Part shown: positions 7,612 to 64,000 of the stretch, piece by piece
How the letters are laid out: the number at the start of each line of letters is the position of its first letter
Position numbering within the stretch: position 1 is the first letter of the stretch
Source of the DNA: Firmicutes bacterium UBA4996
Lineage (GTDB): Bacteria; Bacillota; Limnochordia; Darwinibacteriales; Darwinibacteriaceae
Length of the DNA stretch: 64,000 nucleotides
Assembly (NCBI GenBank): GCA_002396805.1
Contig: DGYW01000058.1
Span: forward strand, 45,591-109,590
Direction: 5' to 3'
The notes under the pieces: model-generated
Seen by the model: the letters and a program-made list of their open reading frames with translations, nothing else
Database searches by the model: none
What the model was told of the DNA's origin: nothing
Position numbers and translations under genes: made by a program

Positions 7612-8383
7612 AAAGCTTCTGCTCCTTCGAGCCTTCTTCAAAATGGAGTTTATTACCTTTCGGCGCTATTGGATGAATAGTCTGGGTGGTATGCTCACCT
7701 TGTACGTTATTTTTTTGGTCCTGTTTGGTGGCTATCAAGGCCTACGGAGTCTTGGAGGTGTCGAAGGTGATCCGGCCGAAGTTATTGTCGTAGGTTATGT
7801 CCTTTGGTTCTTCATGCTCTCTACTTATCAGGATGTATGGTATACCATACGCACAGAAGCTCAGCAGGGCACATTGGAACAACTGTATATGTCTATTCAT
7901 CCCTTCGGTTGGATAATGGGGGCTAAAGTTGTAGCTCGCTTCTTTATCAATTTACTTCTTGTAGCGATTTTGCTGGGGGCTGCTCTTTTTACTACTGGTG
8001 TTACCCTTAATCTTGATTTGCTATCCCTAATGCCAGTTTTAATCGGTACCCTTTTGAGTAGTCTGGGTATAGGATTTCTAATTGGTGGAATTACCCTAAT
8101 GTTTAAGCGGATCGATAGTTACACCCAAATGGTGCAATTTATCCTCATTGCCTTAGTGGCCCTACCTGCGGATCGAGTGTTGTGGATGCGGCTATTGCCT
8201 GGTAGCTATGGGGCAACCTTAATTAGAAACATTTTGGTTGATGGTGCCACCCTGTGGGGACTGGGAGTGGGTAATTTGGCCATGTTATTTGCTATTGGCC
8301 TCTTACATCTGGCAGTGGGTTATGGGGTGTACACCCTCTGTGAGAAAAAGGCTATGTTCCTCGGAATGCTAGGGCATTATTGA
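7604..8383 (+). CDS. ABC-2 type transporter permease
   Basis: Six hydrophobic TM segments. It overlaps the stop of the upstream ATPase gene. Confidence 0.75.
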   Translation: MREKLLLLRAFFKMEFITFRRYWMNSLGGMLTLYVIFLVLFGGYQGLRSLGGVEGDPAEVIVVGYVLWFFMLSTYQDVWYTIRTEAQQGTLEQLYMSIHPFGWIMGAKVVARFFINLLLVAILLGAALFTTGVTLNLDLLSLMPVLIGTLLSSLGIGFLIGGITLMFKRIDSYTQMVQFILIALVALPADRVLWMRLLPGSYGATLIRNILVDGATLWGLGVGNLAMLFAIGLLHLAVGYGVYTLCEKKAMFLGMLGHY

Positions 8384-8856: not shown

Positions 8857-10329
8857 ATGAGAATGGATACCTTTTCCTTAGTCATTTTTGGGGCCACGGG
8901 AGATTTAACGCAACGCAAATTATTCCCAGCCCTCTATAACTTGTGTCGTGAAAATTTGCTACCAGAGCACTTTTCTGTTGTGGCCATCGGTCGCAGGGAA
9001 AAAACTCAGGAGCAATTGTACCAGGACATTACAAGCGCGGTTAAACAGTTTTCTCGCGAGAATCATATCAATCAGGATCAATTTGAACAATTTCTTGAAC
9101 GGTTCAGCTACTATCAGCTGGAATTCAATAATTCTCCTGGTTACGCGGAGCTTAAGAGCTATTTAGAGAAACAGGATCGCCGGTGGCACACCCAGGGGAA
9201 TCGGATCTTCTTCTTGGCCGTGGCACCAGAGTATTTTTCGGTCATCACAGATGAACTGCATAAGCACGGAATGGCCACAAATGAGCGGAGCTGGCAACGG
9301 TTAGTGGTAGAAAAGCCTTTCGGTCAAAACCTACATTCCGCCACTACCTTAAATAGTGATGTGCGCAAGACTTTTGCAGAGGAAAACATCTACCGCATTG
9401 ACCATTACCTAGGTAAAGAAATGGCCCAAAACATTATGGTAGTTCGTTTTGCCAACACTCTTTTTGAGCCACTTTGGAATAATCGCTATATCGACCATGT
9501 ACAAATTAGTCTGGCAGAAACAATAGGTGTGGAAGGGCGCGGACCCTACTATGAGCAAGCCGGAGCCTTACGGGATATGGTTCAGAATCACGCCTTACAG
9601 CTTCTCACTTTGATTGCCATGGAACCACCCGTATCTTTGGATACCGAATCTGTACGCGACGAGAAAGTTAAAGTACTACGCTCTTTGAAAATTCGCAAGG
9701 AAGATGTAGTTCGAGGTCAATATGGTTCAGATCATGCAGGCCAACTTCGGGCCTATCGACAAGAAGAACGGGTGTCGCCTAAGTCGCAAACAGAGACCTT
9801 TGTGGCCTTAAAGACCACCATTGATAACTTTCGCTGGGCTGGAGTGCCCTTCTATTTGCGTACCGGCAAACGTCTACCACAGAAATATGCAGAAATAGTC
9901 ATTAGTTTCAAGCGTCTTCCAGGTGTGTTATACTTTGAACAGGAGGACCTAGGGCCCAACGTGTTGGTTATCCGCTTGCAGCCTGATGAAGGCATTTATT
10001 TGCAGTTTAATGCTAAGCGTCCTGGAACCCCAAGTCTTATTCAGCCCGTCTCCATGGACTTTTGTCAAAACTGTCATAACGGTTTTAATTCACCTGAGGC
10101 CTATGAGCGGTTGCTTTATGATGTGATGCGCGGTGATTCAACATTATTCACGCGCTGGGACGAAGTTGAGTACTCTTGGAGATTCGTGGATCAGATTGCT
10201 CAGTGGTGGGAAGAAGATGGGGGCGCCATTCCCGTTTACGCTAGTAACTCCTGGGGACCTCAAGCCAGTGCCGAACTTCTAAAAAAGGAAGGTCGAGATT
10301 GGCTCAGATTTATAGAAACGGAGGTTTAG
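8857..10329 (+). CDS. zwf: glucose-6-phosphate 1-dehydrogenase
   Basis: NADP-binding motif FGATGDL and the active-site region IDHYLGKE in a 490-aa protein. Confidence 0.9.
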   Translation: MRMDTFSLVIFGATGDLTQRKLFPALYNLCRENLLPEHFSVVAIGRREKTQEQLYQDITSAVKQFSRENHINQDQFEQFLERFSYYQLEFNNSPGYAELKSYLEKQDRRWHTQGNRIFFLAVAPEYFSVITDELHKHGMATNERSWQRLVVEKPFGQNLHSATTLNSDVRKTFAEENIYRIDHYLGKEMAQNIMVVRFANTLFEPLWNNRYIDHVQISLAETIGVEGRGPYYEQAGALRDMVQNHALQLLTLIAMEPPVSLDTESVRDEKVKVLRSLKIRKEDVVRGQYGSDHAGQLRAYRQEERVSPKSQTETFVALKTTIDNFRWAGVPFYLRTGKRLPQKYAEIVISFKRLPGVLYFEQEDLGPNVLVIRLQPDEGIYLQFNAKRPGTPSLIQPVSMDFCQNCHNGFNSPEAYERLLYDVMRGDSTLFTRWDEVEYSWRFVDQIAQWWEEDGGAIPVYASNSWGPQASAELLKKEGRDWLRFIETEV

Positions 10330-51967: not shown

Positions 51968-52381
51968 GTGTTCCACAATATGGGAACCAATCGTGAGTCC
52001 GCCACCGATGGTGGTGTTTATCTTATCTGGATCTATTTACCGAAGGCGATCGAGCTTTCCGTAGGTAAGCTAGGAACCCTTTCTTTTGAAGAAGGGGTTT
52101 ATGCCTATTGCGGAAGTGCCCAACGGGCGCTACAAAAGCGCCTCGCTCGACACGCTAGATTAGATAAAAAACTCCATTGGCACATCGATTATTTGCGATC
52201 CCGCGCCCAGTATTTAGGCTCGGTCGTGTTTTTCAATCAGCCGAAATCAGGAGAGTGTTGGTTGGTGCAAGAATTATTACGTATCCCGGGTAGCTTTTTC
52301 CCCGCTAGTGGCTTTGGCTCTTCTGATTGCACATGTGCTGCTCACTTGGTGCAGGTGCCTTTGGCTTTTCCTAAGAAATAG
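51968..52381 (+). CDS. DUF123 (GIY-YIG-like) domain protein
   Basis: Motifs GVYLIW...YAYCGSA...WHIDYL characteristic of DUF123. Confidence 0.55.
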   Translation: MFHNMGTNRESATDGGVYLIWIYLPKAIELSVGKLGTLSFEEGVYAYCGSAQRALQKRLARHARLDKKLHWHIDYLRSRAQYLGSVVFFNQPKSGECWLVQELLRIPGSFFPASGFGSSDCTCAAHLVQVPLAFPKK

Positions 52382-52385
52382 AGAT

Positions 52386-52580
52386 TTAGTATCTTTTGGC
52401 AATGCGGTTCATCATATTGATTTGGGTGCGACAAAGGCGCTCACACTCTTCGATACTAGAAATTAGGTCGCTATTCTTTTTAGGATGAAGTTCATCAATA
52501 CTCTCTTGACAAAGGGTCTGTAATTCATTTAGTCGTTCCAATAGTCTCCAGATAACATCAGTAGGTTGCACTTTTGACAT
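52386..52580 (-). CDS. hypothetical small protein (64 aa)
   Basis: ORF only. The RBS spacing is poor, and the gene is divergent from tldD. Confidence 0.3.
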   Translation of the reverse strand: MSKVQPTDVIWRLLERLNELQTLCQESIDELHPKKNSDLISSIEECERLCRTQINMMNRIAKRY

Positions 52581-52631
52581 CCTTTCTCAGTTGATTGCTG
52601 TTTCATAATTATAACATTAAAGGGAGGTTTT

Positions 52632-54026
52632 ATGTTGCTTACAGAACGATTAGTAACAGATGTGTTGTTGGCCGCCTTATCTACAGGTGGCGATTTCGCG
52701 GAGATTTTCATGGAGGACACCTACAACACGATGATCCGTATGATTAATGGTACCGTGGAAGAGGGGGTTACCGGACGCGATTACGGCGTAGGTATTAGGA
52801 TTTTCCAGGGGATGCGAAGTGTTTATGCTTACACCAATGATACTGCCAGAGAAAACCTAATGAAGGTGGCCCTTGAAGCTGCCGCTGCTTTAGCAGATAC
52901 TCCGAAAGTAAAGAGCATTGTGCTGGCTCGTATGGCAGTGGAGAAGTTTAACCCGATTGTTTTAGAGCCACGGCAGGTTGCATCGGGGGACAAGGTTGGG
53001 GTGATGAAAAGAGCCCATGCAGCCGCCTTTGATCACCATGAACAAATTAGCCAAGTTGCCATTAATTATCTTGATACGGATCAAAGCGTATTCATTGCCA
53101 ACTCAGAGGGATTGATGGCAGATGACCGCCGGGTCCGGACTCGACTGGCAATTAATGCAGTGGCTACCAAGGGTAACGAAAAACAGTCTGGTTTTTATGG
53201 TCCTGGGCGTCACATGGGTTTTGAACTTTTTGAGCATCTCGATGTGGAGGAATATGCGCAGGAAGCTGCTCGAATTGCAGTTACCATGGTAAATGCTGAT
53301 TATGCACCTAGTGGTAAGTATCCAGTGATCATCCACAACGGATTTGGTGGAGTGATTTTTCATGAGGCCTGTGGACATGGTTTAGAAGCGACCAGTGTGG
53401 CAAAAGGGGCTTCAGTCTTCGCTGGCAAGTTAGGGGAAAAGGTAGCTAGTGAGTTGGTTACCGCAGTGGATGATGGGACCATTCCTAATGCCTGGGGTTC
53501 GCAGAATATCGATGATGAGGGGCATAAAACTAAGCGTAACGTACTCATCGAGAACGGAATTCTGAAGGGTTATATGATCGATAAGTTAAACGGGCGACGC
53601 ATGGGTATGGAACCAACTGGCAACAGTCGACGTCAATCCTATAAATATGCGCCTACCTCCCGTATGACTAACACCTTTATTTGTGCAGGGCAATCCAGTG
53701 TTGATGAGATCATTAGTAATACTGAATATGGTCTGTTCGCAAAACATATGGGTGGCGGGTCCGTTAACCCTGCAACTGGTGAATTCAACTTTGCTGTGTC
53801 CGAAGGCTATCTCGTACGTAATGGTAAAATTGAGAAGCCAGTTCGGGGTGCTACCTTGATCGGAAGAGGGTCTGAAATTCTACAGAAGATCGATATGGTA
53901 GGTTCTAACCTTAGCACTGGCCAAGGCATGTGTGGTTCCATAAGTGGATCCATTCCTGCTGACGTGGGCCAACCAACGATTCGTGTGACGGAAATCACCG
54001 TCGGTGGACGAAAGGAGGCAAACTAA
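52632..54026 (+). CDS. tldD: TldD family metalloprotease
   Basis: HExxxH-type motif HEACGHGLE in a 464-aa protein with RBS AAAGGGAGG. Confidence 0.85.
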   Translation: MLLTERLVTDVLLAALSTGGDFAEIFMEDTYNTMIRMINGTVEEGVTGRDYGVGIRIFQGMRSVYAYTNDTARENLMKVALEAAAALADTPKVKSIVLARMAVEKFNPIVLEPRQVASGDKVGVMKRAHAAAFDHHEQISQVAINYLDTDQSVFIANSEGLMADDRRVRTRLAINAVATKGNEKQSGFYGPGRHMGFELFEHLDVEEYAQEAARIAVTMVNADYAPSGKYPVIIHNGFGGVIFHEACGHGLEATSVAKGASVFAGKLGEKVASELVTAVDDGTIPNAWGSQNIDDEGHKTKRNVLIENGILKGYMIDKLNGRRMGMEPTGNSRRQSYKYAPTSRMTNTFICAGQSSVDEIISNTEYGLFAKHMGGGSVNPATGEFNFAVSEGYLVRNGKIEKPVRGATLIGRGSEILQKIDMVGSNLSTGQGMCGSISGSIPADVGQPTIRVTEITVGGRKEAN

Positions 54027-55381
54027 TGGACATTAGGGAGTTTAAAGACCAAGTATTCGCGGCAGGTCGTGAAGTTGGCTTGGAGGATATGGAAGTTTAT
54101 GTGTCCCGTTCTAAGGACTTTTCCGTACGTATCTATCAAACGGAAGTAGATGATTATACCGTTAGTGTGGAGCAAGGTGTTGGCTTTCGTGCTCGCTTTG
54201 CGGGCAAAGTTGGCTACGCCTATGTGGAAGCTTTAGACCAAGACTCAATCAAACTCTTGGTGGAAGGGGCCAAGGAGAATGCTCAGATTATAGATTCTAC
54301 TGACGAAATAGTCTTTTTCGAAGGTTCTCCAGAGTATCCCGAGGTTTCCGCTTATAGTGAGGAGTTGGAGGGTGTCTCTGCGGAAGAAAAAATCGAGTTT
54401 GCTAAGTCCCTTGAAGCAGAAGCCTTTGCGGCTGATCCGAGGGTTTCGATGGTAAATTGGTCCACTGCTGGGTATGGTGAAACAGAAGTGTACATTGCGA
54501 ACACCAAAGGATTAGAACAGTCCTATAATCGTAACGGAGCCTTCTCCTATGTCGCCGCGGTGGTGAAAGAGGGCGAAACGGTCAAAACTGGTGGACGTTT
54601 TCGCTTTGATAATGATTGGACTAAATTTGATGCCACGAAACAAGCCCAAGAAGCAGTGGCAGAAGGTGTTTCTTTGTTGAATGCTAGTTCTGTTAAGTCT
54701 GGAGACTATAGGGTATTGCTTAGATATGATGTGGCCCGGGATCTTCTTAGTACCTTTTCCTCTGTGTTTTCTGCTGAAGCGGTGCAGAAAGGGTTGTCCT
54801 TGTTAGGAGGTAAACTTGGCGAACAAATTGCCAATCCACAGCTAACTCTTGTTGACGATCCTCTACTTGCCAATGGTGGAGCGTCAGCTCCCTTTGATGG
54901 GGAAGGTGTGGCCACCAAGACTAAAGAAGTCATTTCTCAGGGAAAGCTCGTAACCTTTTTGCACAACCTCAAAACTGCAAAGAAGGACGGGGTAGAGTCA
55001 ACTGGTAATGCTTTCCGTGCTTCTTTTAAGTCCCCAGTGGGAATTTCTCCAAGCAACTTCTATATTCAGCCCGGTGATAAAAGCTATGAGGAACTGGTGA
55101 AAGAGCTCGGCAATGGATTAATTATCATTGACGTGCAGGGCACCCATTCAGGGGCTAACGCAGTGTCTGGAGACTTTTCTTTAGGTGCCTATGGCTATTT
55201 AGTGGAAAATGGTGAGATTACTAGGGCGGTTGATCAGATTACAGTTGCAGGTAATTTCTTTAAGTTGCTTGAAAGCGTGGAAGAAATTGGCGCTGACTTG
55301 GAATTTGGCATTCCGGGTTATGGTGGCAATGTAGGGTCGCCATCACTGATCATTGAAAAACTGGCAATCGCAGGTAATTAG
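54026..55381 (+). CDS. pmbA: TldE/PmbA family protein
   Basis: PmbA/TldD fold paralog lacking HExxxH, translationally coupled to tldD. Confidence 0.8.
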   Translation: MDIREFKDQVFAAGREVGLEDMEVYVSRSKDFSVRIYQTEVDDYTVSVEQGVGFRARFAGKVGYAYVEALDQDSIKLLVEGAKENAQIIDSTDEIVFFEGSPEYPEVSAYSEELEGVSAEEKIEFAKSLEAEAFAADPRVSMVNWSTAGYGETEVYIANTKGLEQSYNRNGAFSYVAAVVKEGETVKTGGRFRFDNDWTKFDATKQAQEAVAEGVSLLNASSVKSGDYRVLLRYDVARDLLSTFSSVFSAEAVQKGLSLLGGKLGEQIANPQLTLVDDPLLANGGASAPFDGEGVATKTKEVISQGKLVTFLHNLKTAKKDGVESTGNAFRASFKSPVGISPSNFYIQPGDKSYEELVKELGNGLIIIDVQGTHSGANAVSGDFSLGAYGYLVENGEITRAVDQITVAGNFFKLLESVEEIGADLEFGIPGYGGNVGSPSLIIEKLAIAGN

Positions 55382-55391
55382 GAGGACGTTT

Positions 55392-55919
55392 ATGAATTTC
55401 TCTACACGTAAGATCGCCAACCTTGGAGTGCTTACGGCAGTATCTATTGTGCTTACTCGGGTCTTCGGCTTCATTGTTCCAGTGGCAGGAGTAGGGGCTC
55501 TCAGAATTAGCTTTGGAGAGATTCCCCTGATCCTAGCTGGCATTTTGTTTGGTCCTTGGGCTGGAGCTGTTACGGGTATAGCTGCGGATTTAATCGGCTA
55601 TGCCATTAACTCACATGGGGGAGCGTTCTTTCCTGGATTTGCCTTAAGTGCAGCCCTGACGGGGCTGCTTCCCGGTTTACTGTTGCACAGTTATCGGGAG
55701 AATCTACGTTGGTGGCAAGTTGGGGTCACGGTGCTGTTGACCGATTTAGTCACAGGCGTTGTTTTAAACACTCTTTGGTTGACAATCTTGTATGGGCAAG
55801 GTTTCTTTGTTATTTTACCCGCCAGACTCTTGGCCCGTTTGGTCACTTTGCCCATCTATACGCTGGCAGTATTCTTGATTAATCGGGCGTATCAAACCTA
55901 TCGACAAGGCGCTCAGTAG
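55392..55919 (+). CDS. ECF-type transporter substrate-specific (S) component (start ATG 55392)
   Basis: Membrane protein of about 175 aa with six TM segments, typical of ECF S components. RBS GGAGGA lies upstream. Confidence 0.55.
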   Translation: MNFSTRKIANLGVLTAVSIVLTRVFGFIVPVAGVGALRISFGEIPLILAGILFGPWAGAVTGIAADLIGYAINSHGGAFFPGFALSAALTGLLPGLLLHSYRENLRWWQVGVTVLLTDLVTGVVLNTLWLTILYGQGFFVILPARLLARLVTLPIYTLAVFLINRAYQTYRQGAQ

Positions 55920-55922
55920 ATC

Positions 55923-55951
55923 TTGCGACCTATTGTATTTTGTGTTATGAT
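55923..55951 (+). promoter_or_regulatory. sigma-A type promoter for the small ORF
   Basis: -35 TTGCGA, a 17-nt spacer and an extended -10 TGtTATGAT. Confidence 0.45.
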
Positions 55952-55992
55952 AGCTTCGAAACTATACATTATACAAAGGCACATAGTGAGGT

Positions 55993-56232
55993 GTGGTTTT
56001 CCGTATGGATCTCGAACCGCCGAGACGGTGGCACAAATGGAAATTAGAGTTCTTGTGGCGATTGCCTTTAGAACCACGCAAGAAAATCAAAAGGTTCATC
56101 AAATTAGGGGACGATTACTTGGTTCAAGGCGAGCTGCTATTAGCAGAGCATTGTTATCATCTCTCTAAGCAGCTAGCTGAAAACGCTGGTACAGTCCATC
56201 TATTGAAAAAGATTGAACAAAGGATCCAATAG
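55993..56232 (+). CDS. hypothetical small basic protein of 75-79 aa (start GTG 55993 or ATG 56005)
   Basis: It is bracketed by a candidate promoter upstream and a strong terminator placed right after its stop. Confidence 0.45.
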   Translation: MVFRMDLEPPRRWHKWKLEFLWRLPLEPRKKIKRFIKLGDDYLVQGELLLAEHCYHLSKQLAENAGTVHLLKKIEQRIQ

Positions 56233-56259
56233 CCTTGGCGGCGACGCCAAGGTTTTTTT
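56233..56259 (+). terminator. rho-independent terminator
   Basis: Perfect hairpin CCTTGGCG-gcga-CGCCAAGG followed by TTTTTTT. Confidence 0.8.
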
Positions 56260-56296
56260 ACCCAGATGCTTGACCTAAATAAGTATCATTATTGGC

Positions 56297-56325
56297 TTGC
56301 TTTGCAGTTTGTAAGAGGTTATAAT
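56297..56325 (+). promoter_or_regulatory. sigma-A type promoter for the ArsR-family operon
   Basis: -35 TTGCTT, a 17-nt spacer and -10 TATAAT. Confidence 0.5.
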
Positions 56326-56360
56326 AACATTAAGAAAACTTTCACATTGGGGGTCGGACC

Positions 56361-56663
56361 ATGAGACAAACTGAGCAATCCGCCCGGCGTTTTCACGTAC
56401 TTGCGGATCCGATTCGTCTACAAATAGCTCTTTTGCTTCGTGAAGGCGAAATGTGCGTAGGGGACTTAGTTAACGAACTAGACATTAATCAACCCAAGGT
56501 ATCATATCATCTTAAACGTATGTATGAGGAAGGTTTATTGGAGCGTCGTACAGAATACACGTGGAGTTTTTATTCATTGTCCACTGACCTGAGAACTTGG
56601 GTCAATGAGGAACTAGATCTCTTACTGGAAAACAGTTCGTTAGCAAAGGCAAGGGGGCTATAA
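56361..56663 (+). CDS. ArsR/SmtB family transcriptional regulator
   Basis: Winged HTH motif (LADPIRLQIALLLREGEMCVGDLVNEL...VSYHLKRM). Confidence 0.75.
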   Translation: MRQTEQSARRFHVLADPIRLQIALLLREGEMCVGDLVNELDINQPKVSYHLKRMYEEGLLERRTEYTWSFYSLSTDLRTWVNEELDLLLENSSLAKARGL

Positions 56664-56984
56664 GTGAAGGATTTGAAGCAATTGACCAAGGCTCCCTCTT
56701 TTCTAGGGGCCATAAAAGCCATTTGGCGGGCGGGGGTAGAGGCTTTTGAGCAGGAGGCAGCTGTAGCGGATTTGCAGAAGACAAAAGCGCGTCTCCAAGA
56801 AGAATCCTTAGCCTTGTCTCGTCTTGTACACGATTACGAAACCAAGATACATAATATAGTTCGCGAAAATGAAGAACTCCGCAAACAAAACCGCGAATTT
56901 GAGTGGGCCTACAGGGCCTTGCGTCGTGAAAATCAGTGGCTGAAAGAAGAAGTGTTTAAGCTAAAAGGTCGACCATTACAGTGA
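56664..56984 (+). CDS. coiled-coil protein of unknown function (GTG start overlapping the ArsR stop)
   Basis: Heptad-rich sequence, translationally coupled to the ArsR gene, with a terminator immediately downstream. Confidence 0.5.
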   Translation: MKDLKQLTKAPSFLGAIKAIWRAGVEAFEQEAAVADLQKTKARLQEESLALSRLVHDYETKIHNIVRENEELRKQNREFEWAYRALRRENQWLKEEVFKLKGRPLQ

Positions 56985-56987
56985 GTG

Positions 56988-57018
56988 GGAGCCAGGCAAG
57001 GGGCTCCTTCTTTTATTT
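56988..57018 (+). terminator. rho-independent terminator
   Basis: Hairpin GGAGCC-aggcaa-GGGGCTCC followed by TTCTTTTATTT. Confidence 0.7.
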
Positions 57019-57099
57019 GCTCGCTACCGAATAGCCCAGCGTTGGGCAGGATTATGCATCGTTGAGTCGAAACCTCTACGTTGGAAAAGGAAGTGACTT

Positions 57100-57585
57100 G
57101 TGATGAACTCAAAAAAGATGATCCAAACCGCTCTTTTAGTTGCTTTAGTTGCAGTTACCACCATGGTGGTGAATGTACCACTACCGGGGGTCAAAGGGTA
57201 TATCAATATTGGGGATACGATTGTGCTATTATCTGGAGTTTTGCTTGGTCCCACAACAGGGGCAGTGGCAGGCGCCCTCGGATCTAGCCTTGCGGATCTT
57301 CTCTTAGGATATGCCCATTGGGCACCATGGACCTTTATAATTAAGGGGTTAGAAGGGTTTTTGGCCGGCTGGTTGGTGTTGCGTCTCCGTAAGGGGACTA
57401 CACTAGCTACGGTGATCGGTGCTGCTGTGATGGTTGGTGGCTATTTTCTAGTGGGTACCTTGTACTATGGTTTCGGTGTAGCGGTTGCCTCTGTGCCTGG
57501 AGATCTACTTCAAGGCGGTGCCAGTGTGCTTTTGGCTCTAGTCTTGGTGCGGCCTCTCCGGAAATATCTGGGCCTGGGCCAGTAA
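57100..57585 (+). CDS. membrane protein, ECF-transporter S-component-like
   Basis: Five to six TM segments in about 160 aa, with motifs typical of ECF S components. Confidence 0.5.
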   Translation: MMNSKKMIQTALLVALVAVTTMVVNVPLPGVKGYINIGDTIVLLSGVLLGPTTGAVAGALGSSLADLLLGYAHWAPWTFIIKGLEGFLAGWLVLRLRKGTTLATVIGAAVMVGGYFLVGTLYYGFGVAVASVPGDLLQGGASVLLALVLVRPLRKYLGLGQ

Positions 57586-57595
57586 GGAACAGGCA

Positions 57596-57622
57596 CATTT
57601 TCTCTCTCCACCTCATAAGATA
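57596..57622 (+). promoter_or_regulatory. candidate sigma-E/sigma-K type promoter upstream of the sigK 5' segment
   Basis: CATAagaTA (57614..57622) matches the CATA---TA -10 consensus recognised by sigma-K. An AC dinucleotide lies about 16 nt upstream. Confidence 0.35.
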
Positions 57623-57641
57623 GTTTTGCAGAAGAGGGGAG

Positions 57642-58007
57642 GTGGGCGGTGAGTTGTTTGCCCCACTATTCAGTGGAATAGGTTTGTGGTTGTTGGAGGG
57701 CGTAGGTATGCTGGCTTCCTTCGTCACCAGTGGGAGTGCTTTTCCTAAACCCTTAAGTCCCGAAGAAGAGCAAGAATTATTAATCAAGAAGGCAGAAGGA
57801 GACGAAGGGGCCCGAAATACTCTGATCGAGCGCAACCTTCGTCTTGTGGCTCATATTGTCAAAAAGTTCGATAATACGGGTGAGGACAGTGAAGATTTGA
57901 TTTCCATCGGCGTCATTGGTTTAATTAAGGCCATTAACACCTTCAATCCTCACAAGAACACTCGCCTAGCTACTTATGCAGCTCGGTGCATTGAGAATGA
58001 GATCTAA
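57642..58007 (+). CDS. sigK: sigK 5' segment (equivalent to spoIVCB): pro-sigma-K N-terminal half, GTG start, ending ..CIENEI* at the element junction
   Basis: Near-identical to the B. subtilis SigK N-terminal half ([11 protein letters not shown]...[37 protein letters not shown]...[14 protein letters not shown]). RBS GAGGGGAGG lies upstream. Confidence 0.9.
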
Positions 58008-60309
58008 CTGTCAAAGGATCGGTGTCCACCATATAGCGTTGACCGTATACTAAAAGTTCGCAGGGTGAAGCACCTTCGTGTTTGATCTTCACTCCTTCTT
58101 GATGTACCTTTACTTCGAGTCTATGACCCCTAAAGAGTAGCTTGAAGTCATAACCAGACCATTGTCGTGGTAGAAAGGGCTTTAGGGAGAGTGTGTCATT
58201 CTCAATTCGTAAGCCACCAAATCCGTAGACGATAGACATCCAGGTACCAGCCATACTAGTAATGTGCAGGCCATCATCTGTGTCATTGTTGTAATTGTCT
58301 AGATCCAAACGGGCGGTACGCAGATACAGCTCGTATGCCTTCTCTAGATAGCCTACTTCAGCCGCAATGATCGAATAAACGCAAGGAGAGAGGGAAGACT
58401 CGTGCACTGTCATGGGTTCGTAGAAATCGAAATTGCGTTTTTTTGTTTCTAGATCATAGCGGTCTCCAAGGAAGAAGAGCCCTTGGAGTACATCTGCTTG
58501 CTTGATAAAGCAAGATCGCAGAATCCGATCCCAAGACCAGTTTTGATTCAAGGGAAGCTCGTGGGGTGGTACGGCACTCACTGGGAGTAATTCTTTATCC
58601 ATAAACCCATCCTGCTGTTCAAAGACATCGTGTTTTTCCACATAGGGGTAGTACATCTTATCCATTATTTCTCCCCAACGTACCGTTTCTTCGTGACTGA
58701 GATTTAGTTGGGTGTATAATTCTCGAAAACGACTAGGATCGCTTTGGCGAACATAGTCTAGTACCTCGAGGGTGTATTCTAAACACCAAGAAGCCATGCG
58801 ATTGGTATGCCAATTGTTGTTCACGTTGTTTTCGTACTCGTTGGGTCCCGTAACCCCGAGGATCATGTAAACACCTTTGCGGGGCTGATATGTGACTCGG
58901 CCTGCCCAAAAGCGACTAATTTCTACCAATACCTCAAGGGCGTATTCTCCTAAATATGCTCGATCGTTGGTATAGCGAACATAGTTGAAGATGGCGTAGG
59001 CTATCGCCCCATTGCGATGAATTTCTTCAAAGGTGATTTCCCATTCATTATGGCATTCTTCTCCTGTCATGGTCACCATAGGATAAAGGGCCCCCGGAAG
59101 ACCTAGTTTTCGGGCATTTTCTTTGGCTTTTTCCAGGTGTTGGTAGCGATAAATTAGGAGATTACGCGCGATTTGCGGATCGCTGGTACTTAAATAGAAG
59201 GGGAGACAATATGCCTCCGTATCCCAGTAGGTACTTCCACCGTATTTTTCTCCAGTGAAGCCTTTGGGACCTATGTTTAGACGGGGATCTTCTCCAGTAT
59301 AGGTTTGATTGAGGTGGAAGATGTTAAAGCGGATTCCTTGCTGGGCGGCGGGATCGCCTTTGATTTGAATGTCACTATCGTACCATGTTTGGGCCCATGC
59401 TTGCTCGTGTAAAGCAAAGAGTTGATCATAGGTTGATTGACCGTGCTGGTCTAATAGCTTAAGAGCTTGCTCAGTAACTTGTTTGGCGGGGTAATCCCGA
59501 TTAGTGGTGACGGCTACCAACTTCTCTAAGGTCAGGGTCTGACCTAACTGCAACTTCTGTTGAACGCTAGCCTCCGCATACCCGGAACTGGCGGCAAATT
59601 GGGTGGAATTTTCCGTTATTTCGTGTTCATCCAAATAGAGGCGAAACGAGCTGGAGGCCGCCACAAGAAATCCAGATTTTTTAGTCTCCATGGTGACCAT
59701 TTGGTGGTTCGCTTCACTGGCTTCGGTCACGCCTAGCCAAAAGTCTTCACCGTAGTTGGCGTCTTCGTTGATGACGTTGCCATCAAGGTATGGCGTAAAC
59801 TCTACTTCCACACCTTCGTATGAAGGATCCTCTTCTAGGGTTACACGGTAACGGATTGCTGCAAGTTGTCGCTGATGTTTACTGACGAAACGCCCAGTTT
59901 CAAGATGTAAGATGCGTCCTTGTTCATCCTGAACTCTAAACGAACGGGTGAGTTGGCCTGCCCGCATATCCAATTTACGCTGAAAGTCAAGGGGCTCCCA
60001 AGTGTGTAGATCTACTGCGCGTCCCCCAAGACCAACTCTTATACCAATAAAGTTTACCGCGTTGAGGACTTTCGCGAAATATTCCGGATAGCCATTCTTC
60101 CACCAACCGACCACAGTACGATCAGGATAAAATACTCCTGCGATATATGTACCCTGAAGGCTATCGCCAGAATAGTCCTCCTCGAAATTTCCGCGCATGC
60201 CCATATAACCGTTGCCTAGGCTCATGAGGCTCTCGGTGACTCGATTCCTTTCTGGATGAAACCCCTTTTCAATGATTTCCCATTCATGGGTTCCGTAGAA
60301 AAATTTCAA
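57970..60309 (-). CDS. glycoside hydrolase family 65 disaccharide phosphorylase (maltose/trehalose/kojibiose phosphorylase-like). Its last 12 codons read across attL antisense to sigK.
   Basis: A 779-aa protein with GH65 N-terminal, catalytic (alpha/alpha)6 and C-terminal regions. TTG start follows a GGGGGG RBS. Confidence 0.8.
57999..58005 (+). repeat. left copy of the 7-bp direct repeat GAGATCT (attL core)
   Basis: It is identical to 62008..62014. Joining the two copies restores ..ENEILMHLR.. in frame. Confidence 0.8.
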
Positions 60310-60433
60310 GAAGATCCCCCCTTTAGAAGTCTGTTAAGTTTATCATAACTTATTTGTCATCACTTGGCAATCGTTTGCACAAAAAGCCGAGTAGTCCGTG
60401 GGGAAATCACCAAGTGGGACCTGCTGGTTCCTT

Positions 60434-61096
60434 TTAAGATTGTCGTTGCAGGGCCTCAAGTAGTTGTTTTAGGCTCACGGATTCAAATCCAGAAATAACT
60501 ACATGGGCTGCAGATAACATATTTGGCTCACCGACACCAACCGTAAGCATTCCAGCGTTTAGAGCCGCCTCAATTCCTGCTTGGGCATCTTCAAAAACCA
60601 CAGTATGTTCTGGGGCCACGTTTAGCTGAGCTGCCCCTAGTAAAAACACCTCTGGATCGGGCTTAGCTTTCGAGACCAAATTCCCATCAATGATGGCGTC
60701 GAAATAATCAGTGATCTGAACCCTTTCCAATATGGTTCGGGCGTTCTTACTTGCTGAACCAAGGGCGATTTTTATGCCCTGACCCCGCAATTCGTCTAGG
60801 AAGTCCAAGACCCCTGGTAGTATTTCCGAAGTGTCCATTTGTAAAATATACTGTACGTACCAGGTGTTTTTCTTCGCGGCTAAGGATTCTTTTTCTGCAG
60901 TTGTTTTCTCTTGCTTGCCAATCTCCAACAGAATTTCTAAGGAACGCATCCGGCTGACTCCCTTTAGCCGTTCGTTATCTCGTTCGGTAAATTCGATGCC
61001 CAATTCGGCACCTAGACGTTTCCAAGCTAAGTAATGGTATTTGGCAGTATCAACAATTACCCCATCCAAATCAAAAATGGCCAGACGAATATCCAT
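60434..61096 (-). CDS. pgmB: beta-phosphoglucomutase (HAD family)
   Basis: HAD motif I AIFDLDGVIVDT in a 220-aa protein, upstream of the GH65 gene in the same operon. RBS AAAGGAGG. Confidence 0.85.
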   Translation of the reverse strand: MDIRLAIFDLDGVIVDTAKYHYLAWKRLGAELGIEFTERDNERLKGVSRMRSLEILLEIGKQEKTTAEKESLAAKKNTWYVQYILQMDTSEILPGVLDFLDELRGQGIKIALGSASKNARTILERVQITDYFDAIIDGNLVSKAKPDPEVFLLGAAQLNVAPEHTVVFEDAQAGIEAALNAGMLTVGVGEPNMLSAAHVVISGFESVSLKQLLEALQRQS

Positions 61097-61174
61097 AAGC
61101 TGCCTCCTTTACGGACCCATTATAACATGAGATGGAGTGGGAGCACATAGATTTTAAAGAAAGGGAGGAAGGAG

Positions 61175-62017
61175 GTGGCGTATCTGATTGCCATCTACGC
61201 CCGGGTAAGCACGGAAGAACAAGCTAAACATGGTTTTAGTATCGCTGCGCAAATTCGGGAATGTCAGGAACTGGTCGATCCTCAGCTCACCTTAACCTTT
61301 GTAGATGAGGGTGTTTCTGGTGAGATTCTGCACCGCCCAGCTCTAGAAGAATTGCGCCTAAAGATCGAACAAGGGGAAGTTAACACCGTGGTGTGTTTGG
61401 ATCCTGACCGCCTATCTCGTAAGCTACTCCATCAGCTTTTACTCACGGAGGAATGGGAAAAGCGGGGGGTGCAGTTGACTTTCGTGCACGGGGATTATAG
61501 CAAAACTCCTGAAGGCAATCTTTTTTATGCCCTCAGGGGGGCGATTTCTGAATTTGAGAAGGCTAAGATCACTGAACGTATGTGCAGGGGGAGACGGGAA
61601 AAGGCTAGGCAAGGAAGGGTTTTGAGGGATTTTCAGATCTATGGGTATGATTATGACGTGGAGCATGAACAACTAGTGGTGAATAGGGCTGAGGGAATAA
61701 TAGTAAAGAAAATTTTCACCTGGTTCTTAGAGCCGCCACCAGGAGTCAAGGGAGTCTCCAGCATTGCCAAGACCTTGACATATCAAGGAGTACCTACGAA
61801 GAGAGGTGCTAAGCAGTGGCACCGGCAAGTGGTACGTCAAATTCTGAGTAATCGTACTTACTTAGGGGAATTTTATCAGAATAAATGGGACACTACCAAC
61901 TCTCAAGTCCGGTTGCGACCGTTTGAAGAGTGGATTTTAATTCCTTGTCCATCCTTGGTTACGGTGGATGTCTTTAACCAGGTTCAGAAAAAACTGTCAG
62001 TGAATTCGAGATCTTAA
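61175..62017 (+). CDS. serine recombinase (SpoIVCA-like, but only 280 aa). It has the resolvase catalytic domain and a Recombinase domain, but lacks the zinc-ribbon and coiled-coil region.
   Basis: Catalytic motif YARVSTEEQ (Ser nucleophile). GTG start follows a GGAGGAAGGAGG RBS. The stop TAA overlaps the sigK 3' ATG. Confidence 0.8.
   Translation: MAYLIAIYARVSTEEQAKHGFSIAAQIRECQELVDPQLTLTFVDEGVSGEILHRPALEELRLKIEQGEVNTVVCLDPDRLSRKLLHQLLLTEEWEKRGVQLTFVHGDYSKTPEGNLFYALRGAISEFEKAKITERMCRGRREKARQGRVLRDFQIYGYDYDVEHEQLVVNRAEGIIVKKIFTWFLEPPPGVKGVSSIAKTLTYQGVPTKRGAKQWHRQVVRQILSNRTYLGEFYQNKWDTTNSQVRLRPFEEWILIPCPSLVTVDVFNQVQKKLSVNSRS
62008..62014 (+). repeat. right copy of the 7-bp direct repeat GAGATCT (attR core)
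   Basis: It is identical to 57999..58005. An additional AACTGTCA octamer repeat sits inside each element end (58006..58013 and 61993..62000). Confidence 0.8.
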
Positions 62018-62367
62018 TGCATCTACGCACCACCAAGAGGGCTCGTCAAGAGGTGATGCTGTACGATCCCATCGGAGCAGACCGGGAGGGAAATGAGATC
62101 AGTTTGATGGATATTCTCAGTTCCGATGGTGATGAAGTACTGGAGTCGGTGGTCTTAAATATGGATCGCAACCAATTAGCAGAAAAATTCCACTGTCTCT
62201 CCAAGCGCGAGCGGATGGTTTTGGAACTAAGATTTGGTTTAGGACACCAAGAACGGCACACTCAAAGGCAGATAGGACGCATATTAGGCATTTCTCGTTC
62301 TTACGTTTCTCGTATTGAAAAACGAGCTTTGGGTAAGCTTCTAAATGAAATGGGCCCCCTCAGCTAA
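62017..62367 (+). CDS. sigK: sigK 3' segment (equivalent to spoIIIC): sigma-K C-terminal half, regions 3 and 4
   Basis: MHLRTTKRARQEVMLYDPIGADREGNEISLMDIL...QIGRILGISRSYVSRIEKRALGKL closely matches the B. subtilis SigK C-terminal half. Confidence 0.9.
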   Translation: MHLRTTKRARQEVMLYDPIGADREGNEISLMDILSSDGDEVLESVVLNMDRNQLAEKFHCLSKRERMVLELRFGLGHQERHTQRQIGRILGISRSYVSRIEKRALGKLLNEMGPLS

Positions 62368-62425
62368 GGACCAGGTCCCGCAGTGGGGATCTGGTCTCCC
62401 CCTTGGGGATCATTTTGTTTTATCC
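62368..62425 (+). terminator. possible terminator after sigK
   Basis: Hairpins GGACCAG...CTGGTC and TCCCC-ctt-GGGGA, followed by a T-rich tract. Confidence 0.4.
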
Positions 62426-62481
62426 TTTTTTCCCCGGATATGTTATAATAAAGCGATACATTTTGGAAAGATGGAGCTGTT

Positions 62482-63018
62482 ATGGGATTATTACAACCAG
62501 ACTTGATTTTGGAGGATGTCTTTGCTATAGATCTACCAAGACTACAAGCCAACGGCATCAAAGGATTATTGATTGACCTAGATAACACCATAGTGCCCTG
62601 GGAAGAGTCACTCATGGAAGAGCGTTTCATCACTTGGGTGCAGCAGGTTAAGGAGCAAGGTTTCGCCATTTGCCTTGTTACTAATGCTTTGGAAAATCGC
62701 ACCGCAAACTTTGCGGGTCTTCTGGAGATCCCCGCTGTTGGACGGGCCTGGAAACCATTAAACCGGGCTTTTTCGCGTGGTCTAAAGTTATTGAAGTTAC
62801 CTGCAGCCCAAGTGGCGGTAGTGGGCGATCAGTTGTTTACAGATGTTCTAGGCGGTAATCGTATGGGACTTTTTACTATTTTGGTTAATCCCTTGAGCAC
62901 AAAAGAGCTTAAAACTACAAAGTTCATGAGGCGCCTAGAAGGTCGAGTACTAGACAAGATGGTACAAAAAGGTCAACTAAGTGCTCAAGCGGTGTCGATA
63001 CGCAAAGGGGGAGACTAA
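62482..63018 (+). CDS. yqeG: YqeG-family HAD phosphatase (subfamily IIIA)
   Basis: HAD motif LIDLDNTIV. It lies upstream of yqeH, as in Bacillus. Confidence 0.8.
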   Translation: MGLLQPDLILEDVFAIDLPRLQANGIKGLLIDLDNTIVPWEESLMEERFITWVQQVKEQGFAICLVTNALENRTANFAGLLEIPAVGRAWKPLNRAFSRGLKLLKLPAAQVAVVGDQLFTDVLGGNRMGLFTILVNPLSTKELKTTKFMRRLEGRVLDKMVQKGQLSAQAVSIRKGGD

Positions 63019-63019
63019 T

Positions 63020-64000
63020 ATGAGGCAACAACATTGTCAGGGATGTGGTGCCCACATCCAAAGCAGTAATCCAAGTGAGTATGGTTATGTACCAGAAGGC
63101 CAGCTGAATCGGGAACCCCTCCTTTGCCAACGTTGTTTTAGAATCAACCATTATGGTCGTGATGACATCGGTCCGGTCCAGGCCAATGATTCCCTTGCCT
63201 CCATTGAAGCTGGTTTAGCTTGGTGCAGCGGGGTTGTTTTGGTGGTGGATCTCATGGATTTCGAGGCCAGCGTGCCTCGAGAGCTTGTAGGTATGATTGG
63301 CAACAAGAAGACCATCCTGGCCGTGAACAAGGTGGATCTCTTGCCAGAACAGACACCCTTACGGGAAATCCATGGATGGATTGCTAAAAGGCTTACAGAT
63401 TTAGCCTTTCCCCAGGTACAGGTGAATTTGATTAGTGCCGTTAATGGCCATGGTTTTCCCGATCTTGCGGATGAAATCGAGAACCTAGGTCCGAATGTTC
63501 TGTTTATTGGAGTCACCAATGTGGGTAAATCCAGTGTCTTAGAAAGGCTTTTACATATGCGCATTGGTGGGGGTAAGCGGGGTATTGTTAAGCCCACCAT
63601 TTCACCGTATCCAGGCACAACCGTTCAGGTTTCAAGGTGGCGGTGTCCGGGTGGTTTGGTTTTGGCTGACTCCCCCGGCTACGTTCCCCAGGGGCGGGTG
63701 AGCGATCAAGTGGCAGCAGAATGTGCCCGGGAGCTAATTCCCCATCGCCAGCTGTCTTCTCATCTCTATCCTGTGCAGGTCGGGGAACTGATCCATATTC
63801 CGGGTCTTTGTGGATTTGAGTGTTTGGAAAGCTCCGGTTCTGGTCTGCTCTTGGGCTTTACGGGATCGGGTGTACAGTGGCAGAAGTCCACTAACAAACA
63901 CCTGAAAAAGTGGCTTGAAGAGTATGCTGGCCCCTGCCAAGTTAAGACATGGGAGCAGAGGACGATCAGATTATACCCAGGGCAAGATGCGGTGATTAGT
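63020..64000 (+). CDS. yqeH: ribosome biogenesis GTPase YqeH (circularly permuted GTPase). The 3' end is truncated by the window, and the gene is absent from the ORF track.
   Basis: N-terminal zinc finger CQGCG...CQRCF, G4 NKVDLL preceding G1 GVTNVGKSS, and G3 DSPG. The reading frame is open to the window end. Confidence 0.85.
   Translation, partial: MRQQHCQGCGAHIQSSNPSEYGYVPEGQLNREPLLCQRCFRINHYGRDDIGPVQANDSLASIEAGLAWCSGVVLVVDLMDFEASVPRELVGMIGNKKTILAVNKVDLLPEQTPLREIHGWIAKRLTDLAFPQVQVNLISAVNGHGFPDLADEIENLGPNVLFIGVTNVGKSSVLERLLHMRIGGGKRGIVKPTISPYPGTTVQVSRWRCPGGLVLADSPGYVPQGRVSDQVAAECARELIPHRQLSSHLYPVQVGELIHIPGLCGFECLESSGSGLLLGFTGSGVQWQKSTNKHLKKWLEEYAGPCQVKTWEQRTIRLYPGQDAVIS

Follow-up and report, generated by a model that had tools for sequence, protein, structure and literature searches.

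In the stretch analysed here, 64,000 nucleotides of contig DGYW01000058.1 from Firmicutes bacterium UBA4996 (GCA_002396805.1; contig positions 45,591-109,590; hereafter "the window"), the sporulation gene sigK is interrupted between CIENEI and LMHLR by a 4,009-bp insert bounded by GAGATCT repeats. The insert holds exactly three genes, for a GH65 phosphorylase, a beta-phosphoglucomutase (beta-PGM, gene pgmB) and a serine recombinase, and it is studied here as an intervening element of the skin type. The genes of the locus, with domains called from Pfam and NCBIfam profiles, are these:

57642-58007, plus strand: sigK 5' half (spoIVCB-like), ending in CIENEI and a stop; Sigma70_r2; TIGR02846 positions 9-113 of 227
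57970-60309, minus strand: GH65 phosphorylase of the maltose-phosphorylase type, 779 residues, TTG start, full Pfam domains
60434-61096, minus strand: pgmB, 220 residues; HAD_2, with the FDLDG nucleophile motif
61175-62017, plus strand: serine recombinase, 280 residues, GTG start; catalytic and Recombinase domains only
62014-62367, plus strand: sigK 3' half (spoIIIC-like), starting LMHLR; Sigma70_r4; TIGR02846 positions 115-226 of 227

Both sigK fragments match TIGR02846, which is the SigK equivalog. When the two GAGATCT copies are joined in silico, the frame runs TGC ATT GAG AAT GAG ATC TTA ATG CAT, that is CIENEILMHLR, through an uninterrupted sigK. The predicted rejoined junction is GAGAATGAGATCTTAATGCAT (also written ...GCATTGAGAATGAGATCTTAATGCATCTACG...), and the excised circle would carry GTGAATTCGAGATCTAACTGTCAAAGG (also written ...CTGTCAGTGAATTCGAGATCTAACTGTCAAAGG...). 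For comparison, seven query proteins were mapped onto about 180 fetched loci, labelled with L-numbers, and the intact sigK orthologues of L019 and L180 have the same junction sequence as the rejoined gene of the window. A split sigK that rejoins in frame, a SpoIVCA-like recombinase at the edge and a core repeat with inverted-repeat arms are the marks of a skin element, and the spoIIIA operon and other sporulation genes nearby are intact. Because of the insert, sigK is annotated in these metagenome-assembled genomes (MAGs) as two fragments or a pseudogene, with a "maltose phosphorylase" between the fragments. The spacers inside the insert measure 124 nucleotides (pgmB-GH65) and 78 nucleotides (pgmB-recombinase). 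They are too small for further genes: no phage gene, transporter, regulator or open reading frame (ORF) of the size of a recombination directionality factor (RDF) was found in the insert. A search of positions 52000-64000 against Rfam gave no match at the gathering threshold.

Distribution and history of the cassette

The order sigK 5' half, GH65, pgmB, recombinase (280-288 residues) and sigK 3' half recurs between an ECF-transporter S-component gene (ECF-S) and a yqeG-like gene in about 20 distinct lineages, all uncultured Limnochordia or DTU010-like Bacillota, and identical proteins in the same order are found in at least six independent metagenome samples. The contigs with the nearest GH65 homologues (67-82% identity) are also those of the nearest recombinase homologues (65-83% identity), which are nearly all 277-285 residues long and, where named, come from "Limnochordia bacterium" or Bacillota MAGs. 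The other states of the locus are:

L014: same cassette, with a recombinase of 381-383 residues
L098 and L097: same cassette, with a recombinase of 466-474 residues
L018/L118 (381 residues) and L012 (about 280 residues): pgmB and recombinase only, GH65 lost
L019, L179 and L180, and the more distant L022, L026, L029 and L041: intact sigK, no insert
L021: ECF-S, terminator, GH65, pgmB and yqeG; no sigK fragment and no recombinase

The elements that lack GH65 are reduced to about 1.6-1.9 kb (L012:7236-8840, L018:6654-8563); their pgmB is intact and fused with the left att arm. The history of the locus was read from a neighbour-joining tree of five flanking proteins (667 shared columns, 200 bootstraps). 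The intact-sigK loci L019 and L180 fall inside both the clade descending from the most recent common ancestor of L012 and the window and that defined in the same way by L098 and the window, in 200 of 200 bootstraps. Since these loci nest within the element-bearing clade, the simplest reading of their state is a clean germ-line loss, so that the element was excisable. The element is neither recent nor sporadic; the cassette has been inherited vertically through a deep clade.

In the same tree L021 branches as the sister of all element-bearing lineages taken together; the outgroups that follow carry an intact sigK and no operon. This locus (L021:2680-6020) belongs to a soda-lake "Clostridiales" MAG contig, and the hairpin between its ECF-S and GH65 genes is bidirectional. 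We favour the view that the recombinase, GH65 and pgmB entered sigK as one unit before the clade radiated, and that sigK and the recombinase later decayed in L021. L021, with GH65-pgmB here but neither sigK nor recombinase, is what speaks for an alternative in which GH65-pgmB was an ancestral operon of the ECF-S/yqeG locus, captured into sigK by rearrangement, and not mobile cargo. We regard this as very unlikely: the outgroups L022, L026, L029 and L041, like the nested relatives, have sigK directly upstream of yqeG with no operon, the deep-branching L097 already carries the cargo inside sigK together with a full-length recombinase, and moving an adjoining operon into a gene along with a recombinase and inverted-repeat arms would take several improbable steps. 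L021 is more simply explained if sigK and the recombinase decayed as its lineage abandoned sporulation. The earlier note on this DNA had named the operon beside an uninterrupted sigK as the sign of a different insertion history; the uninterrupted loci L019, L179, L180, L022 and L026 lack the operon at this position. L021 was also considered as a recent derivative of an L097-like element, which was rejected, as the two are not specially related (GH65 identity about 60-66%).

The flanking features of the window are these:

57100-57585: ECF-S gene, left flank of the sigK locus
62392-62412, plus strand: terminator-like hairpin 3' of sigK
62482-63018: yqeG-like HAD phosphatase gene, right flank of the sigK locus

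An alignment scan of genome contigs for the yqeG-like protein gave about 8 close relatives among 80 listed loci, the others sharing generic HAD motifs. Several loci depart from the common layout. In L097 the roughly 430 nucleotides between attL and GH65 (L097:1400-1810) translate to a fragment that looks, by eye, like the maturase part at the C-terminus of a group II intron reverse transcriptase. In two very long contigs of GCA_900198705.1, synteny is lost right where the sigK cassette begins or ends, probably through chimeric assembly at a conserved region: L009 diverges from L008 and L010 downstream of position 9200, past the sigK 3' half, and L011 differs from L012 and L013 upstream of position 8000, with ATP-synthase and MiaB-like genes before the recombinase in place of pgmB and the sigK 5' half. 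Another skin layout, with the recombinase right after the sigK 5' half and on the same strand, is seen in L126:1988-5151, L127:3-1257 and L136:1550-2357; these recombinases are related at 56-60% identity, those of L126 and L127 have 502-504 residues, and L136 is cut off by the contig edge.

Recombination sites

The sequences at the two ends of the insert are:

57999-58005: left core repeat, GAGATCT
58001-58014: left element arm, GATCTAACTGTCAA, with a conserved TGTCAA; encodes the GH65 C-terminal tail on the minus strand
61994-62007: right element arm, CTGTCAGTGAATTC; doubles as recombinase codons L-S-V-N-S
62008-62014: right core repeat, GAGATCT

In relatives the core is only GAGA or TGAGA, and the dyad symmetry of the reconstructed sites makes GA at 57999-58000 the probable crossover dinucleotide. 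The arms are inverted repeats around this central GA, with CATTGA(A) at positions 10-5 from the centre in four of four half-sites when read by eye, and their counterparts in relatives (TCAATGTCAA / TTGACATTGA) are conserved at the nucleotide level. On the element side of attL, about 11 nucleotides (TTCAATGTCAA) are 90-100% conserved in 14 lineages, after which conservation collapses. At the other end, the last seven codons of the recombinase, from 61994 to the core, are themselves the right att arm and core. In 18 lineages with short recombinases these codons read CTG TCA GTN AAN TCG AGA TCT nearly invariantly, with five of the seven third positions invariant; in the codons upstream, conservation ranges from 0.33 to 0.89 per position and from 0.39 to 0.72 at third positions. 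The constrained DNA amounts to about 14+2+14 bp per site, as in the crossover sites of resolvases and invertases and unlike an integrase attP. Competence for excision is supported by this near-invariance of the att arms, even at synonymous positions, together with the nested intact-sigK loci; its proposed timing, in the mother cell during sporulation, has only indirect support in these loci, in the constraint on every part of the cassette and in a CATA-type promoter box.

The recombinase

The recombinase is made of a catalytic domain (PF00239, residues 5-148), whose YARVSTEEQ motif is kept in all homologues, and a Recombinase domain (PF07508, residues 176-275, profile positions 6-100 of 102). 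It stops 5 residues beyond that domain and so has neither zinc ribbon (PF13408) nor coiled coil, an unusual shortness that the earlier note does not mention; its homology to the SPbeta integrase extends up to residue 296 of the 545 of that integrase. Homologues at 44-60% identity are recombinases of 450-490 residues from Bacillus-group genomes. Within the clade the proteins form a length series. The longest have 466-474 residues with both zinc ribbon and coiled coil (L097:5069-6484, L098:8001-9371), the intermediate ones have 381-383 residues with the coiled coil deleted (L014:8001-9143, L018:7418-8563), and the shortest (the window, 61175-62017, and L012:8001-8840 among them) have about 280 residues and lack the zinc ribbon as well, ending, apart from L012, in LSVNSRS. 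The zinc-ribbon segment CxxC...C is still present in L097, L098, L014 and L018. A tree of the recombinases joins the main short clade with the 381-residue forms as its sister group, and the short protein of L012, which ends in LEKGHARVSVKLRF and a stop, groups with the 466-residue protein of L098. These separate positions mean that truncation to the catalytic and Recombinase domains took place at least twice, in independent events.

A coiled-coil-deleted Listeria phage integrase needs no RDF for intramolecular recombination between attL and attR (PMC5499577), and because of this an "excise-only" trajectory of the recombinase is plausible by analogy. That protein (LI Int deltaCC) offers a rationale for the 381-residue recombinases of L014 and L018. 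It is, however, engineered, retains its zinc ribbon and has low efficiency in vitro (PMC5499577), whereas the natural 280-residue forms have lost the zinc ribbon too. Two ways of lengthening the short protein were considered. Completion of its ORF across the circle junction was rejected, as this would add only 15 codons and there is no long plus-strand ORF in 58000-60300; for a frameshift fusion to the sigK 3' half no evidence was found. The recombinase stop (TAA; T(A/G)A in relatives) overlaps the ATG (Met) of the sigK 3' half, and a translational coupling of this fragment to the recombinase is conceivable.

Selection on the cassette

Selection was assessed by Nei-Gojobori counting over 14 divergent loci of the type with a full cassette and a short recombinase. 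The ratio of nonsynonymous to synonymous differences (pN/pS) is 0.20 for the recombinase, 0.22 for GH65 and 0.23 for pgmB, compared with 0.11-0.12 for the sigK halves and 0.29 for yqeG and ECF-S on either side; divergence at synonymous sites has reached saturation (pS about 0.78). No stop in the cargo and recombinase sets points to decay, and one untraced stop each occurs in the pgmB and sigK 5' sets. Given these ratios and the lack of decay-type stops, GH65, pgmB and the short recombinase are under purifying selection and are not pseudogenes; the cargo genes of the window are intact, and the pseudogenes for which the earlier note had allowed were not found. L123, with split GH65 and pgmB matches and stops in its recombinase, was considered as a case of decayed cargo and rejected: its yqeG and sigK 5' half are frameshifted too, which indicates an error-rich assembly.

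This constraint bears on the view that the element is dead and immobile, with sigK permanently split in organisms that no longer complete sporulation or that use the two halves otherwise. Such a view would fit a recombinase devoid of zinc ribbon and coiled coil, a window species whose rejoined sigK was not found, and a sigK 3' half with an ATG of its own overlapping the recombinase stop. It is nonetheless unlikely. The sigK halves, the recombinase and the att arms are strongly constrained in about 14-18 lineages whose synonymous divergence is saturated, the same truncated architecture arose at least twice and was kept, the intact-sigK lineages nested in the clade mean that clean excision has occurred, and the adjoining spoIIIA operon and other sporulation genes are intact.

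Cargo genes and their expression

The earlier note had described the cargo as metabolic rather than phage-like, and the domain and equivalog matches bear out the canonical pair of GH65 phosphorylase and beta-PGM. The GH65 protein covers all three of its Pfam domains (Glyco_hydro_65N 2-233/233, 3.5e-71; 65m 1-371/371, 2e-145; 65C 1-60/62, 3.8e-19) and scores 1147.6 bits against NF010380, for which the cutoff is 838. The comparison with solved structures covered maltose, kojibiose and glucosylglycerol phosphorylases. The closest solved relative is the maltose phosphorylase of Lactobacillus brevis (1H54, 822 bits), ahead of kojibiose phosphorylases (443 and 413 bits) and glucosylglycerol phosphorylase (319 bits). 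The specificity loops align without gaps, and loop 3 matches 1H54 residue for residue, HNE motif included. Maltose phosphorylases have a short loop 3, in which the HNE triplet is the characteristic motif and its replacement by TPK gives kojibiose activity (PMC11442529, a 2024 review of GH65). [quoted passage not shown] On the strength of the match to 1H54, the identity of loop 3 with its HNE and the GxxEYENN context, we assign the enzyme as a putative maltose phosphorylase (EC 2.4.1.8), which narrows the maltose, trehalose or kojibiose range proposed earlier. The pgmB product scores 248.7 bits against the beta-PGM equivalog TIGR01990 (cutoff 189.4), has the HAD DxDG nucleophile as FDLDGV at residues 8-13, and matches the crystallised beta-PGMs 3NAS and 1LVH at about 1e-51. 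It is correct that the two enzymes make up a complete phosphorolysis module; uptake and glucokinase for the maltose route must be encoded elsewhere.

That the two genes form one operon, as had been proposed, is plausible, with no terminator-like site on the minus strand of their 124-nucleotide spacer, but not exclusive, given a promoter-like site upstream of GH65. The signals noted around the cassette are:

57614-57622, plus strand: CATAAGATA, a putative match to the CATA---TA -10 of mother-cell sigma factors (sigmaE/sigmaK type), read by eye, about 20 nucleotides upstream of the sigK 5' half
60342-60370, minus strand: promoter-like TTGCCA-17-TATGAT in the pgmB-GH65 spacer, a consensus match only
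61117-61129: conserved box CCATTATAACATG; its minus-strand reading, TGTTATAAT, is a putative extended -10 for pgmB
61146-61153, plus strand: CATAGATT, a conserved CATA-type -10 (CATAG..T), 14 nucleotides past a -35-like box and upstream of the ribosome-binding site and GTG of the recombinase

Two boxes in the pgmB-recombinase spacer (70-78 nucleotides) are conserved in 18 of 19 aligned lineages. The first, CCATTATA(A/T)CATG, reads TGnTATAAT on the minus strand, about 25 nucleotides upstream of the pgmB ribosome-binding site; at 61117-61129 it overlaps the plus-strand -35-like ACATGAG of the putative recombinase promoter. In relatives the arrangement TCATGAT-N14-CATAGTCT resembles the sigmaE/sigmaK promoter class, whose -10 and -35 consensus we take to be that of Bacillus subtilis promoters. 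From these consensus matches we infer a sigmaA-type promoter for pgmB and sigmaE/K-type promoters for the recombinase and the sigK 5' half; transcription would start at about 61112 on the minus strand for pgmB and at about 61160 on the plus strand for the recombinase.

The 3' end of GH65 is fused to the recombination site. Its frame crosses the left att arm to a TAG stop at 57970-57972, 38 nucleotides inside the sigK 5' ORF on the opposite strand, so that its last 12 codons and stop face the sigK 5' half in antisense; this tail falls outside the fold, as the Pfam C-domain reaches only to residue 759. The overlap had been pointed out before, and it is real, but it is a lineage-specific frame change. 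In 13 of 17 scorable related loci the gene abutting attL stops at the TGA of the arm motif TTTGACA, 7-9 nucleotides within the element; only the window lineage reads into sigK, and its nearest relative, L182, stops about 21 nucleotides inside the element. What is general across relatives is that the cargo comes so close to the sigK 5' half that no terminator could fit in between.

This geometry invites the view that the cargo is coupled to the control of sigK, sigmaA-driven antisense read-through silencing the sigK 5' half in vegetative cells and in the forespore until excision. The gene abutting attL, be it GH65 or, where this is lost, pgmB, always points towards the sigK 5' half, with its stop within the att arm or past it; no minus-strand terminator-like site was found from 57970 to 56900, and the putative promoters of pgmB and the recombinase overlap. 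However, compaction by deletion alone predicts the same geometry equally well, L097 has about 430 nucleotides of junk between attL and a GH65 with its own stop, and intact-sigK relatives manage without the cargo. A regulatory coupling of this kind seems to us improbable.

A model of the element and the points against it

The insert is probably a domesticated, maximally compacted and vertically inherited element of the skin type, whose maltose genes are vegetative passengers and which the short recombinase excises in the mother cell. According to this model, the cargo would be transcribed in vegetative cells from the conserved sigmaA-type extended -10 promoter. Maltose phosphorylase would turn maltose and Pi into glucose and beta-glucose-1-phosphate, from which beta-PGM would then produce glucose-6-phosphate, and the two genes would be kept by ordinary purifying selection for carbohydrate metabolism and not for a function in sporulation. 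The short serine recombinase would be made in the mother cell from its CATA-type promoter overlapping that of pgmB, and would delete the element between the two sites of about 30 bp, rebuilding sigK. The timing of excision, and its catalysis by the 280-residue protein itself, are deduced from sequence features and should be taken as predictions. That the cargo is lost from the mother cell and kept in the germ line, a point made in the earlier note, holds in a formal sense for whatever a skin element carries; nothing indicates a functional effect, the "loss" is probably inconsequential, and the note overstates its meaning. The likeliest reading of the cargo is that of a common vegetative maltose module carried along by a domesticated and minimised element of the skin type.

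A more specific proposal can be put forward tentatively. An integrase of 280 residues, at least twice reduced, may act in the manner of a resolvase, without zinc ribbon, coiled coil or RDF, on sites of about 30 bp, shared in part with the last seven codons of its own gene and with the 3' end of the adjoining cargo gene. The maltose operon would then be a permanent passenger, its promoter overlapping that of the recombinase and its read-through antisense to the sigK 5' half.

Several points weigh against our model. L021 is equally compatible with an operon that predates the element at this locus. We know of no serine recombinase without a zinc ribbon that acts on att-type sites, and another, full-length recombinase encoded elsewhere in the genome could act in trans. 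In the protein collection, no intact SigK at least 90% identical to that of the window organism was found, the best reaching 85%, and the GH65 and recombinase clusters held no circle-junction variants, only proteins of chromosomal-form length or fragments. The maltose specificity of GH65 is predicted from sequence alone, and the trees are neighbour-joining trees of 276-667 columns from metagenome contigs.

Comparison with known intervening elements

The skin element of B. subtilis (SpoIVCA) likewise has a serine recombinase at its edge, a short core repeat and inverted-repeat arms, and rejoins to an intact sigK; it presumably splits the gene in the same codon context, CIENEI/LMHLR. In contrast, it is a prophage-like element of 48 kb with a recombinase of about 500 residues and is sporadic among strains, whereas the window element has 4.0 kb, no phage genes and a 280-residue recombinase, and has become fixed in a whole deep clade. 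An arsenic-resistance operon is carried by the B. subtilis skin, so that cargo of a non-phage kind has a precedent. Intervening elements that are not prophages have been described as well, one being gin, which interrupts gerE of Bacillus cereus ATCC 10987; gin differs in its target gene and has three recombinase genes and the accessory factor GirX, and its abstract describes no metabolic cargo (PMC5595907).

According to a recent survey, skin elements from 15 species of Bacilli, Clostridia, Negativicutes and Tissierellia range from 2.6 to 48 kb with 2-67 proteins, and have spoIVCA at the edge, usually just upstream of spoIIIC, with no other shared genes (Galperin et al., 2022, bioRxiv 10.1101/2022.02.25.481979). 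The window element, whose edge recombinase adjoins the sigK 3' half, fits this pattern. The survey included a single Limnochordia genome and reported no skin element from that class, and its main text describes neither a conserved metabolic cargo nor a domain-truncated recombinase (10.1101/2022.02.25.481979). In Clostridioides difficile, skinCd also intervenes in sigK and is excised in the mother cell by a large serine recombinase (CD1231), but its directionality needs a separate sigmaE-controlled RDF, CD1234 (PMC5025042). The window element has no room for an RDF gene, and its recombinase lacks the coiled coil through which RDFs act. As for the cargo, known pairs of maltose phosphorylase and beta-PGM enzymes (L. 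brevis 1H54; L. lactis 1LVH; B. subtilis 3NAS) follow the same route via beta-glucose-1-phosphate. Unlike these, GH65-pgmB of the window stands alone inside a sporulation gene, without transporter or regulator, and its GH65 3' end is fused to a recombination site.

Among the papers searched, none links skin or spoIVCA with maltose phosphorylase or beta-PGM, and sporulation, sigK and maltose go unmentioned where the related order "Ca. Darwinibacteriales" is described. What is new here is the clade-wide vertical retention of a catabolic operon inside sigK, along with extreme compaction, in which ORFs are fused to both arms, and a domain-reduced recombinase.

Concluding remarks

Skin elements are usually pictured as sporadic prophage remnants with only a recombinase in common. 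In contrast, one cassette of 1.6-4 kb is fixed here throughout a deep clade whose members, all uncultured, are abundant in digesters and fermenters. That a sporulation gene harbours a preserved housekeeping operon for sugar catabolism shows how far domestication and compaction can go, the marks of the latter being coding sequence fused to both att arms, the absence of an RDF, and a recombinase shortened stepwise from about 470 to 381 to 280 residues. If the 280-residue protein is active, it would define a minimal set of domains and a minimal site size for a unidirectional, "excise-only" serine integrase, which would be relevant both to the mechanism of these recombinases and to the design of tools.

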